Positions 1,899 through 5,378 of a DNA stretch of 10,559 nt are shown piece after piece. This DNA comes from a virus (lineage: Duplodnaviria; Heunggongvirae; Uroviricota; Caudoviricetes). Numbering within the stretch: position 1 is the first letter of the stretch; the number at the start of each line of letters is the position of its first letter. The notes under the pieces are model-generated. The model did not search any database. It was given only the letters and a program-made list of their open reading frames with translations, and was not told the DNA's origin. Where the stretch lies: IMG/VR virus record IMGVR_UViG_2526164631_000029. One strand, 5' to 3'. The position numbers and the translations under genes are program-made.

Positions 1899-4800
1899 AT
1901 GGGTAAAGGAAGCAGTAAGGGGCATACCCCGCGCGAAGCGAGGGACAACCTGAAGTCCACGCAGCTGCTGAGTGTGATCGATGCCATCAGCGAAGGGCCG
2001 GTTGAAGGTCCGGTGGACGGATTAAAAAGCGTGCTGCTGAACAGTACGCCGGTGCTGGACAGTGAGGGGAATACCAATATATCCGGTGTCACGGTGGTGT
2101 TCCGGGCAGGTGAGCAGGAGCAGACACCGCCGGAGGGATTTGAATCCTCCGGCTCCGAGACGGTGCTGGGTACGGAAGTGAAATATGACACGCCGATCAC
2201 CCGGACCATCACGTCGGCAAACATCGACCGTCTGCGCTTTACCTTCGGTGTGCAGGCACTGGTGGAAACCACCTCAAAGGGGGACCGGAATCCGTCGGAA
2301 GTCCGCCTGCTGGTTCAGATACAGCGTAACGGTGGCTGGGTGACGGAAAAAGACATCACCATTAAGGGCAAAACCACCTCGCAGTATCTGGCCTCGGTGG
2401 TGGTGGATAACCTGCCGCCGCGCCCGTTTAATATCCGGATGCGCAGGATGACGCCTGACAGCACCACAGACCAGCTGCAGAACAAAACGCTCTGGTCGTC
2501 ATACACCGAAATCATCGATGTGAAACAGGGCTACCCGAACACGGCACTGGTCGGCGTGCAGGTGGACTCGGAGCAGTTCGGCAGCCAGCAGGTGAGCCGT
2601 AATTATCATCTGCGCGGGCGTATTCTGCAGGTGCCGTCGAATTATAACCCGCAGACGCGGCAATACAGCGGTATCTGGGACGGAACGTTTAAACCGGCAT
2701 ACAGCAACAACATGGCCTGGTGTCTGTGGGATATGCTGACCCATCCACGCTACGGCATGGGGAAACGTCTTGGTGCGGCGGATGTGGACAAATGGGCGCT
2801 GTATGTCATCGGCCAGTACTGCGACCAGTCAGTGCCGGATGGCTTTGGCGGCACGGAGCCGCGCATTACCTGTAATGCGTACCTGACCACACAGCGCAAG
2901 GCGTGGGATGTGCTCAGTGATTTCTGCTCGGCGATGCGCTGTATGCCGGTATGGAACGGGCAGACGCTGACGTTCGTGCAGGACCGACCATCAGATAAGG
3001 TGTGGACCTATAACCGCAGTAATGTGGTGATGCCGGATGATGGCGCGCCGTTCCGCTACAGCTTCAGCGCCCTGAAGGACCGCCATAATGCCGTTGAGGT
3101 GAACTGGATTGACCCGAACAACGGCTGGGAGACGGCGACAGAGCTTGTGGAGGATACGCAGGCCATTGCCCGTTACGGTCGTCACGTCACGAAGATGGAT
3201 GCCTTTGGCTGTACCAGCCGGGGGCAGGTGCACCGCGCCGGGCTGTGGCTGATTAAAACGGAACTGCTGGAAACGCAGACCGTGGACTTCAGCGTGGGTG
3301 CAGAAGGGCTTCGCCATGTACCGGGCGATGTCATTGAAATCTGTGATGATGACTATGCCGGTATCAGCACCGGCGGGCGCGTGCTGGCGGTGAACAGCCA
3401 GACCCGGACGCTGACGCTCGACCGTGAAATCACGCTGCCATCTTCCGGCACCACGCTGATAAGCCTGGTTGACGGAAGTGGCAATCCGGTCAGCGTGGAG
3501 GTTCAGTCCGTCACTGATGGCGTGAAGGTAAAAGTGAGCCGTGTTCCTGACGGCGTTGCCGAGTACAGCGTGTGGGGGCTGAAGCTGCCGATGCTGCGCC
3601 AGCGCCTGTTCCGCTGCGTGAGTATCCGTGAGAACGACGACGGCACGTATGCCATCACCGCCGTGCAGCATGTACCGGAAAAAGAGGCCATCGTGGATAA
3701 CGGGGCGCACTTTGACGGCGACCAGAGCGGCACGGTGAATGGTGTCACGCCGCCAGCGGTGCAGCACCTGACCGCAGAAGTCACCGCAGACAGTGGGGAA
3801 TATCAGGTGCTGGCGCGCTGGGACACGCCGAAGGTGGTGAAGGGCGTGAGCTTCCTGCTTCGCCTGACCGTGGCAGCGGACGATGGCAGTGAGCGGCTGG
3901 TCAGCACGGCCAGGACGACGGAAACTACATACCGCTTCACGCAACTGGCGCTGGGAAATTACAGGCTGACAGTCCGGGCGGTAAATGCGTGGGGACAGCA
4001 GGGCGATCCGGCATCGGTATCGTTCCGGATTGCCGCACCGGCAGCACCGTCGCGGATTGAGCTGACGCCGGGCTATTTTCAGATAACCGCCACGCCGCAT
4101 TTTGCGGTTTATGATCCGACGGTACAGTTTGAGTTCTGGTTCTCGGAAAAACGGATTGCTGATATCAGGCAGGTTGAAACCAGCGCGCGTTATCTTGGTA
4201 CGGCGCTGTACTGGATAGCCGCCAGTATCAATATCAAACCGGGCCATGATTATTATTTTTACGTTCGCAGTGTGAACACCGTTGGCAAATCGGCATTCGT
4301 GGAGGCTGTCGGTCGGGCGAGCGATGATGCGGAAGGTTACCTGGATTTTTTCAAAGGAGAAATCGGGAAAACACATCTGGCCCAGGAGCTGTGGACGCAG
4401 ATTGATAACGGTCAGCTTGCGCCGGACCTGGCTGAAATCAGGACGTCCATTACGAATGTCAGCAATGAAATCACGCAGACCGTCAATAAAAAACTGGAAG
4501 ACCAGAGTGCGGCAATCCAGCAGATACAGAAAGTTCAGGTTGATACAAATAATAACCTGAACAGCATGTGGGCCGTGAAACTGCAGCAGATGCAGGACGG
4601 ACGCCTTTATATTGCGGGTATCGGAGCCGGTATTGAGAATACGCCAGCAGGTATGCAGAGTCAGGTGCTTCTGGCTGCTGACCGGATTGCGATGATTAAT
4701 CCTGCGAATGGCAACACAAAGCCGATGTTTGTTGGTCAGGGCGATCAGATATTCATGAACGAAGTGTTCCTGAAATACCTGACGGCTCCCACCATTACCA

Positions 4801-5378
4801 GCGGCGGTAATCCTCCGGCATTTTCCCTGACACCGGACGGGCGGCTGACGGCGAAAAATGCCGATATCAGCGGTAACGTGAATGCGAACTCCGGGACGCT
4901 CAACAACGTCACGATTAACGAAAACTGTCGGGTTCTGGGAAAACTGTCCGCCAACCAGATTGAAGGCGATCTCGTTAAAACAGTGGGCAAAGCTTTCCCC
5001 CGGGACTCCCGTGCACCGGAGCGGTGGCCATCAGGGACCATTACCGTCAGGGTTTATGACGATCAGCCGTTTGACCGGCAAATTGTTATTCCGGCGGTGG
5101 CATTCAGTGGCGCTAAGCATGAGAGAGAGCATACTGATATTTACTCCTCATGCCGTCTGATAGTGCGGAAAAACGGTGCTGAAATTTATAACCGTACCGC
5201 GCTGGATAATACGCTGATTTACAGTGGTGTTATTGATATGCCTGCCGGTCACGGTCACATGACGCTGGAGTTTTCGGTGTCAGCATGGCTGGTAAATAAC
5301 TGGTATCCCACAGCAAGTATCAGCGATTTGCTGGTTGTGGTGATGAAGAAAGCCACCGCAGGCATCAGTATCAGCTGA
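1899..5378 (+). CDS. J: Tail tip host-specificity protein J (central tail fiber, receptor-binding)
   Basis: 1159-aa ORF; N-terminus [54 protein letters not shown] and most of the length match lambda gpJ as recalled. GGAG at 1887-1890 is a plausible Shine-Dalgarno site. The C-terminal part appears diverged from lambda. Confidence 0.95.

Follow-up and report, generated by a model that had tools for sequence, protein, structure and literature searches.

The window analysed here is a stretch of 10,559 nucleotides (nt) recorded as a Caudoviricetes virus (IMG/VR record IMGVR_UViG_2526164631_000029), and the gene in question is J, the homologue of the phage lambda gene encoding gpJ. But for one base, the window is identical to the chromosome of Escherichia coli O111:H2 strain 12A (NZ_CP077479.1, 3332033-3342592, minus strand), where it forms the tail-tip end of a lambdoid prophage adjoining a tRNA-Ser gene and the hya operon. 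The sole mismatch falls between lom and stf, with a run of six T at 6176-6181 of the window versus seven in the RefSeq record of strain 12A, so that coordinates derived from RefSeq are off by one base downstream of it. Annotation and PHROG matches revealed the tail-operon order K, I, J, lom and side tail fibre, with one extra lipoprotein gene between I and J (Table 1). The prophage is defective. Besides the damage associated with the insertion sequences (IS) of the window, a truncated terminase gene lies upstream of it, beside another IS66-family element, and in this crippled prophage J, I and lom are still intact. A sequence-only reading of the window had proposed that the first ~820 residues of J are near-identical to lambda gpJ, and that the remaining third is an AT-rich, diverged, alternative receptor-binding allele.

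Table 1. Features of the window and of the J protein (ORF, open reading frame; RBD, receptor-binding domain; aa, amino acids)
Feature	J residues (aa)	Window (nt)	Strand	Basis or remark
IS679		1-272		start of tail gene K lost to IS679
K' (tail gene K, truncated)		273-881		ORFs, RefSeq annotation
I		779-1420		ORFs, RefSeq annotation, PHROG match
Small extra gene (predicted lipoprotein)		1494-1832	+	ORF between I and J
J	1-1159	1899-5378	+	intact ORF, 1159 aa
Hub domains and two FNIII/Ig domains, lambda type	1-819	1899-4355	+	97.8% identical to lambda
FNIII-A_GpJ	86-207			Pfam
Phage-tail_3	330-498			Pfam
Ig_J	610-714			Pfam
Ig_J_second	716-818			Pfam
Putative alpha-helical shaft (AHS), long variant	820-890	4356-4568	+	28 residues longer than in lambda
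Beta-prism 'central straight fibre' (CSF)	891-1003	4569-4907	+	Pfam Phage_Tail_Tip, aa 872-1000
Ig-like RBD, VT1-Sakai/WGPS2 class, and stop	1004-1159	4908-5378	+	Ig_GpJ_C
Predicted loop	1032-1045	4992-5033	+	lambda S1012 aligns with P1040
Predicted loop (REHT)	1076-1079	5124-5135	+	equivalent of lambda hot-spot 1048/1049
Predicted loop (LDN)	1102-1104	5202-5210	+	beside lambda hot-spot 1077/1078
Predicted loop	1132-1143	5292-5327	+	equivalent of lambda hot-spot 1107; D1107 aligns with W1135
lom		5446-6045		ORFs, RefSeq annotation, PHROG match
stf' (side tail fibre, interrupted)		6196-7509		ORFs, RefSeq annotation, PHROG match
ISCro1 (IS66 family)		about 7510-10137		cuts the side tail fibre gene past its N-terminal domain
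IS2		10143-10559		after ISCro1

Divergence of J from lambda gpJ

Compared with the 1132-residue J of lambda (NC_001416; UniProt P03749), residues 1-819 are 97.8% identical in protein and 96.2% in DNA, while residues 820-1159, which include a 28-residue insertion, are 48.8% identical. The break is found at nt 4356, exactly at the boundary between the second FNIII domain (FNIII-2) and the shaft. Both the near-identity of the N-terminal part and the onset of divergence near residue 820 were thereby borne out, and the C-terminal landmarks that had been pointed out, including DMPAG, are all present. Within the diverged third, identity to lambda reaches 75% over residues 891-1010, with a conserved island (residues 961-1000) that is 95% identical, and then falls to 41.6% in protein and 52% in DNA over the last 149 residues, the DNA being about 50% identical from nt 4944 on. 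The last ~150 residues are thus far from identical to their lambda counterpart. With respect to lambda gpJ (PDB 8IYK, 8K35, 8XCG, 8XCJ and 8XCK), the window J has the same gene position, Pfam architecture and RBD fold, but differs by a shaft that is 28 residues longer (33% identity) and by its RBD (43.6% identity). With so low an RBD identity, it does not belong to the lambda allele of the specificity region (lambda residues 960-1132).

The predicted shift towards AT-rich DNA was only partly recovered. The G+C content is lower in the distal part of J, with 0.599 at nt 1899-4058, 0.505 at nt 4059-4355 and 0.513 at nt 4356-5378, but the drop occurs ~300 nt upstream of the divergence, in a stretch (nt 4059-4355) that is already low in G+C and yet 94-98% identical to lambda. 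The corresponding three stretches of lambda J have 0.592, 0.512 and 0.542. Since the step precedes the divergence and is also present in lambda, a low G+C content characterizes the distal part of these J genes generally, and the view that it marks a foreign origin of this allele was rejected.

Domain organization and predicted fold

Cryo-electron microscopy of lambda gpJ established the domain order hub, FNIII-1, FNIII-2, AHS, beta-prism CSF and Ig-like RBD, with four bottom loops of the RBD entering the lumen of LamB (Ge & Wang 2024, PMC11101478). The window J exhibits a lambda-type domain order, with all six Pfam families detected far above their cut-offs. The last of these, Ig_GpJ_C ('C-terminal receptor binding domain'), spans residues 1029-1159 (E 2.6e-37). 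The idea of an alternative receptor-binding allele is thus sustained for a domain only ~44% identical to that of lambda, and has to be narrowed to the last ~156 residues, the RBD being only this part of the diverged third.

No Pfam domain was found at residues 819-871. By comparison with the lambda structure (PMC11101478), this region and the residues that follow would be the counterpart of the AHS. AlphaFold2 predicted residues 842-890 as one continuous helix of 49 residues, with a block-mean predicted local distance difference test score (pLDDT) of 71-90. The 28 extra residues fall in the region aligned to the helix's N-terminal part (residues 836-868), which designates the window shaft as a long-shaft variant. 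Modelled as helix, the extension would add ~4 nm to the shaft.

A second AlphaFold2 model, covering residues 961-1159, has a block-mean pLDDT of 71-96 over the domain core and, as the structure prediction suggested by the sequence-only reading, it matched solved gpJ structures of A8 and lambda. Foldseek ranked A8 in its closed form first (9wca, E 7e-21), then A8 with the OmpC of strain EDL933 (9wcb), lambda closed (8xck) and lambda with LamB (8xcj), all with a probability of 1.00 and E values of 1e-19 to 1e-21. Phmmer searches of PDB sequences gave the same ranking (9wca E 7e-119; 8xcj E 2e-97) and also matched 8iyk. The C-terminal domain is therefore predicted to have the fold of the solved gpJ RBDs.

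Mosaic organization of J

Based on an alignment of complete J sequences from lambda, phage 21, BP-4795, lambda h434 (434 host range), WGPS6, WGPS2 and VT1-Sakai, together with the A8 chimera, identity to the window J was determined module by module (Table 2).

Table 2. Protein identity of related J proteins to the window J, by module
Relative	Hub (aa 1-819)	Shaft (aa 820-890)	Fibre (aa 891-1003)	RBD (aa 1004-1159)
lambda	97.8%	33%	74%	43.6%
h434	97.8%	35%	73%	45.8%
phage 21	96.9%	98.6%	96.5%	69%
VT1-Sakai	72%	98.6%	100%	98.7%
WGPS6	75%	97%	97%	43.8%
WGPS2	73%	63%	68%	99.4%
BP-4795	73%	65%	63%	66%
A8 chimera		33% (lambda type)	75%	64.5%

The J of phage 21 (OL657228) has a near-identical hub, a near-identical shaft with the same 28-residue extension and a near-identical fibre, whereas its RBD is only 69% identical. 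In VT1-Sakai (Sp15, AP000400) and the PPompW prophages of enterohaemorrhagic E. coli (EHEC), the whole region 4360-5378 of the window is matched at 97.6% DNA identity, while VT1-Sakai J has an EHEC-type sequence over its N-terminal ~700 residues (~72% to the window). The EHEC-type J proteins of BP-4795, WGPS2, WGPS6 and VT1-Sakai share 72-75% with the window over residues 1-819. VT1-Sakai J is also split by a frameshift near codon 390 (two coding sequences, 'truncated by a mutation'), in contrast to the intact gene of the window. The RBDs of Stx2a_WGPS2 (NC_049941), JLK-2012 and PhiR5_1 are 99.3-99.4% identical to that of the window. WGPS2, which was among the phages in the J modularity analysis of Maddamsetti et al. 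2018 (PMC6646904), has a shaft and fibre of a second long variant (63-68%) and an N-terminal part at 73%. The 434-type J proteins (h434, mEp460 and WGPS6) display the same architecture with an RBD that is 44-46% identical and has longer loops, and WGPS6 carries the same long shaft and fibre as the window (97%). A8 (PDB 9WCA, closed; 9WCB, with EDL933 OmpC) is an engineered lambda chimera with a short shaft and a graft at the same conserved block.

Sliding-window comparisons of the DNA placed the crossover relative to lambda at nt ~4358. DNA resembling VT1-Sakai extends from nt ~4044 to the end of J, and a switch from phage-21-like to WGPS2-like DNA occurs within nt ~4850-4990. Identity to lambda is back up to 87-88% at nt 4719-4898, and recombination makes use of a junction in the conserved terminal stretch of the fibre (nt about 4779-4907). 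The second crossover sits in the block used for the Eligo chimera grafts, lambda residue 964 being residue 992 of the window. Modules are thus joined at conserved sequence, once where FNIII-2 meets the shaft and once where the beta-prism ends. Other combinations occur among partial proteins of a large protein collection, with a short lambda-type shaft and an RBD of the window's class (P0019, P0020 and P0038), a long shaft and an A8-type RBD (P0068, P0071 and P0072), or a short shaft and a phage-21-type RBD (P0053-55 and P0059). As judged from these sequences, the shaft/fibre and RBD modules recombine independently. The shaft/fibre module of the window was found with RBDs of both the LamB type (phage 21) and the OmpC type (WGPS6, 434-type), and hence does not set the receptor. 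Overall, the best explanation, to which we give a probability of about 0.85, is that J is a natural recombinant, made of a lambda-type hub, a shaft and fibre of the phage 21/VT1-Sakai type and an RBD of the VT1-Sakai/WGPS2 class.

Modular variation of J is already known. An analysis of 1207 natural J homologues, published in 2018, identified lambda residues 960-1132 as an independently recombining 'specificity region' and reported a further nested indel region upstream of it, whose meaning was unknown (Maddamsetti et al. 2018, PMC6646904). This upstream region probably corresponds to the shaft indel of the window J. We rejected the possibility that the variation arises from a diversity-generating retroelement or from internal repeats, as a repeat search found no direct or inverted repeat involving nt 4356-5378 and no reverse transcriptase gene is present within the 40-kb annotated context.

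The receptor-binding domain and its loops

A tblastn survey with the last 150 residues of J against 50,697 phage records returned identities that fall in discrete classes, none lying between 88.7% and 64.5%. The class that includes the window, hereafter designated as class A, comprises 57 records at 88.7-99.3%, among them VT1-Sakai, the PPompW prophages and many phages encoding Shiga toxin (Stx1a/Stx2a), as well as JLK-2012, 2G7b, vB_EcoS-640R1, vB_EcoS-783R2, PhiR5_1, PhiR55_1, PhiR46_1, PhiR47_1, PhiR49_2 and PhiR40_1. The other classes are represented by phage 21 and its relatives (64.5%), BP-4795 and its relatives (58-61%), lambda (42%), and 434 and its relatives (39-41%). With a threshold of about 90% identity over the last 150 residues, together with shared indels, the window RBD belongs to the VT1-Sakai/Stx2a_WGPS2 class (99.3-99.4% with WGPS2, JLK-2012 and PhiR5_1; 98.7% with VT1-Sakai, PPompW and PhiR55_1). 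It falls outside the phage 21/BP-4795/A8 class, with 64-69% identity and neither the short 1012 loop nor the 1048/49 hairpin, and outside the 434-type class, with 44-46% identity to h434 and WGPS6.

Four hot-spots of indels and entropy were described in the lambda specificity region, at residues 1012, 1048/49, 1077/78 and 1107 (PMC6646904). They map to window residues 1040, 1076/77, 1105/06 and 1135, all of which lie in or beside loops of the AlphaFold2 model. The first predicted loop (residues 1032-1045) has the length of that of lambda and is four residues longer than in phage 21 and A8, with 7/14 positions identical to lambda, 5/14 to phage 21 and 4/14 to A8. The REHT loop shares none of its four residues with any relative compared, and is without the hairpin insertion of five to six residues (ENFNSNNQQS) of phi330 and A8. 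At the third site, lambda V1077/Q1078 align with T1105/L1106, and the LDN loop is identical to relatives at 0-1 of three positions. The fourth (residues 1132-1143) is identical at 9/12 positions to phage 21 and A8 and at 3/13 to lambda. Relative to the window, the phage 21 RBD is four residues shorter at the 1012-equivalent loop and five residues longer at the 1048-equivalent one, while the RBDs of A8 and phi330 have other loops at all four hot-spots and carry the inserted hairpin that the window lacks. Altogether, identity to the phage 21 family amounts to 61-63% for the strands but is only 42-45% for the loops at the four hot-spots, the remaining loops (DDQxFD, MPAGxG) reaching 73-93%, and the four contact loops are identical to those of lambda at 10/34 positions. 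By these figures, the allele differs most from the nearest RBDs in the four loops that hold the specificity hot-spots of lambda. A motif, FPR...WPSGT, is common to the window and lambda RBDs and is not found in phage 21 or A8.

Prevalence of class A

Class A RBD DNA was detected in 3387 of the 5426 complete E. coli genomes searched (~62%), with 2301 records at an identity of at least 95%. Lambda RBD DNA occurs in 98 of them, all at an identity of at least 99%, and the five listed are laboratory strains. Class A is the commonest J RBD class in E. coli and the RBD of lambda is an outlier. Other strains, O104:H4 among them, also carry the full-length J, with identities of 97-99.9%. The window J is therefore a common allele of a known kind, already annotated in RefSeq (WP_000515779.1). 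Plaque-forming phages carry this RBD class as well, with PhiR5_1 (99.3%) and PhiR55_1 (98.7%) grown on E. coli C, and PhiR46_1, PhiR47_1, PhiR49_2 and PhiR40_1 grown on ECOR13.

Candidate receptors

Lambda uses LamB and 434 uses OmpC (PMC11101478), whereas the native receptor of phage 21 is LamB (PMC11336670). OmpC was identified as the receptor of phi330 by Keio knockout and complementation (PMC12502783). The J of phi330 (PV189401) has an A8-type RBD that barely differs from that of the engineered A8 gpJ (PDB 9WCA), and its assignment to the WGPS6-like 434 type was accordingly rejected; the A8 type is thus an OmpC binder in two independent studies. Of the hairpins named in that study of phi330 (PMC12502783), E953-S962 is ENFNSNNQQS, A1015-P1020 is ANNWTP and T918-Y921 is the short loop TSTY, and phi330 J is annotated from an internal start (1042 residues).

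Neither relatedness nor loop length designates the receptor of class A. The RBDs of phage 21 (LamB) and A8 (OmpC) are 81.5% identical to each other and use different porins, so that homology cannot assign a receptor to a relative at 64-69%, and assignment by nearest relative was rejected. Loop lengths proved ambiguous: they follow lambda at three of the four indel sites, but those of phage 21 follow another pattern although its receptor, too, is LamB. Our guess is that the receptor is a trimeric porin, with OmpC, in its non-K-12 variants, given a little less than even odds, LamB placed on the unlikely side, and something else considered unlikely.

The leading candidate, for which we would stop just short of an even bet, is that the RBD binds OmpC variants found in E. 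coli other than K-12, for example in EHEC, and behaves like the 1A2 chimera. OmpC is reliably expressed in the gut, and it varies between strains, as do the subvariants of this RBD, while LamB is conserved. Class A is abundant in EHEC prophages, and for the six viable class A phages of the PV3405xx set the propagation host was E. coli C or ECOR13 and never K-12 (0/6), an association that could easily be due to chance (~0.2 by hand calculation). Class A might be the Eligo variant 1A2 itself, and it is so common that the screen of natural gpJ variants probably sampled it. In that work, natural gpJ C-termini grafted at lambda residue 964 retargeted lambda from LamB to OmpC, the A8 chimera using the OmpC of K-12 and EDL933 and 1A2 that of EDL933 only (PMC11338833). 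The A8-type RBDs with their OmpC receptor are 64.5% identical to that of the window, but the window RBD is without the hairpin ENFNSNNQQS, which points into the OmpC barrel in an AlphaFold3 model of phi330.

That the RBD still binds LamB, as a different solution for the same receptor of the kind seen in phage 21, is conceivable but on the unlikely side. Phage 21 is the closest characterised RBD (69%), has an almost identical shaft and fibre and uses LamB (PMC11336670), the loop lengths at 1012 and 1048/49 equal those of lambda, and the FPR...WPSGT motif is common with lambda and not with phage 21 or A8. Closeness to phage 21, however, says little given its own 81.5% identity to the OmpC-binding A8, the identity to the lambda RBD is only 43.6% (10/34 in the four contact loops), and the LamB-type RBD of lambda is rare in natural genomes.

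Binding to another outer-membrane component (OmpF, PhoE, another porin or a non-porin), which would be a specificity new to lambda-type J, appears quite unlikely. The four hot-spot loops differ from those of every characterised relative, with REHT identical at none of its four positions in all of them, the literature search found no published receptor for class A, and both lambda and phage 21 gain access to OmpF by a few mutations (PMC6646904, PMC11336670). Yet the receptors of all characterised members of this RBD fold family are LamB, OmpC or, when evolved in the laboratory, OmpF, and tblastn with the last 150 residues returned only relatives of the lambda, 21, 434 and BP-4795/A8 types. Taken more broadly, the notion that class A has a specificity with no precedent among the lambda-type J proteins assigned so far, whether for a porin other than LamB and OmpC or for OmpC to the exclusion of the K-12 protein, is unlikely.

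Several points weigh against our interpretation of J as a recombinant carrying a distinct porin-binding RBD. Its closest characterised relatives disagree, with LamB for phage 21 and OmpC for A8 and phi330, and the receptor signal is mixed, with a lambda-like indel state at three of four sites in a framework closer to phage 21 and A8. No paper assigning a receptor to a class A RBD was found in the literature search. The calculation behind the K-12 estimate involved ~18 other phages, of which five were propagated on K-12, and the arguments from gut expression, strain variability and likeness to 1A2 are indirect. Finally, both AlphaFold2 models show a single chain of what is a trimeric fibre, their mean pLDDT is ~72, and the beta-prism is poorly modelled.

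Proposed mechanism and fate of J in a defective prophage

The defects of the prophage, the prevalence of class A and the mosaic build, domain identities and fold of J are shown by the analyses above, while trimer formation, docking on a porin, triggering and the receptor identity are inferred. The solved lambda-LamB and A8-OmpC complexes suggest how the window J might act. Three RBDs at the tip of the fibre would reach with their distal loops into a trimeric outer-membrane porin through its extracellular mouth, specificity being set by the four distal loops of the RBD. Porin binding would spread the bases of the RBDs apart, after which the beta-prism may tighten and twist and the helical shaft flip and partly refold. 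By analogy with lambda (PMC11101478), the FNIII strings would then let go and the tail tip open for DNA ejection.

That the divergence reflects decay, with J drifting as a pseudogene in a dead prophage, was rejected as highly improbable. In its favour are the truncated terminase and K genes, the interruption of stf and the three IS elements within the window or next to it. Against it, the ORF is unbroken over 1159 codons, its diverged part is 97.6% DNA-identical to VT1-Sakai and PPompW prophages and 99% identical in protein to the J of plaque-forming phages, the full-length J recurs in other strains at 97-99.9% identity, and its differences from lambda form discrete allele classes with no scattered damage. 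Since K is truncated, the strain 12A prophage cannot make tails on its own, and its intact J is thus best regarded as a store of sequence that incoming lambdoid phages can take up by recombination. A published account (PMC3945230) describes recombination with defective prophages as feeding phage mosaicism, and the intact J of this crippled prophage is probably such a reservoir for other lambdoid phages.

Neighbouring genes

The gap between I and J is filled by a 478-nt insert of low G+C content (0.356) at 1421-1898, where lambda has 60 nt. The extra gene that it contains encodes a predicted lipoprotein of 112 residues, starting MNKTILFCTIIALTGC, with the lipobox cysteine at position 16. This product matches phrog_914 (unknown function), has no Pfam family and gave no DNA or tblastn match among the 50,697 phage records. 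Homologues with 50-60% identity occur in lambda-like tail operons of Klebsiella and Enterobacter at other junctions, either after K, ahead of the gene that follows it, and upstream of a giant J, or in the interval separating T from the tape measure gene, and the gene looks like a mobile extra gene of tail operons. One idea, drawn from T5 Llp and Cor, is that it may act in superinfection exclusion by masking the receptor. In the Klebsiella prophages with this homologue, the giant J-like protein has 3111-3367 residues, about three times the length of lambda J, and its gene (starting at ~7054 of the Klebsiella sequences) encodes FNIII-A_GpJ, CBM_4_9 and Phage_Tail_Tip domains.

Within stf', a family of 43-nt direct repeats occurs five times in the stretch 6972-7275, at spacings that are multiples of 9 nt, and this stretch is very rich in G+C (0.61-0.69) with a strong skew of A over T. 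These repeats probably represent a collagen-like Gly-X-Y region of the N-terminal domain of the side tail fibre; the PHROG match of stf' is 'collagen like minor tail'. Two long ORFs on the opposite strand (6419-7240 and 6886-7512) are probably artefacts of base composition, and the ORFs within J (4282-4560, + strand; 4745-5041, - strand; 4882-5160, + strand) were treated as chance ORFs in a conserved coding frame.

Significance for lambdoid phages of E. coli

The C-terminal domain of J decides which cells lambdoid phages enter, including the long-tailed phages that carry Shiga toxin. Shaft and RBD are distinct cassettes that can be exchanged at conserved joints, which makes engineered gpJ chimeras work. 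As the lambda RBD is rare in nature and class A is the norm, conclusions on host range drawn from lambda and LamB should not be extended to the prophages of E. coli. If class A does have a specificity other than those so far assigned to lambda-type J, the textbook pair of lambda and LamB would be an atypical outlier for the entry of lambdoid and long-tailed Stx prophages into E. coli.

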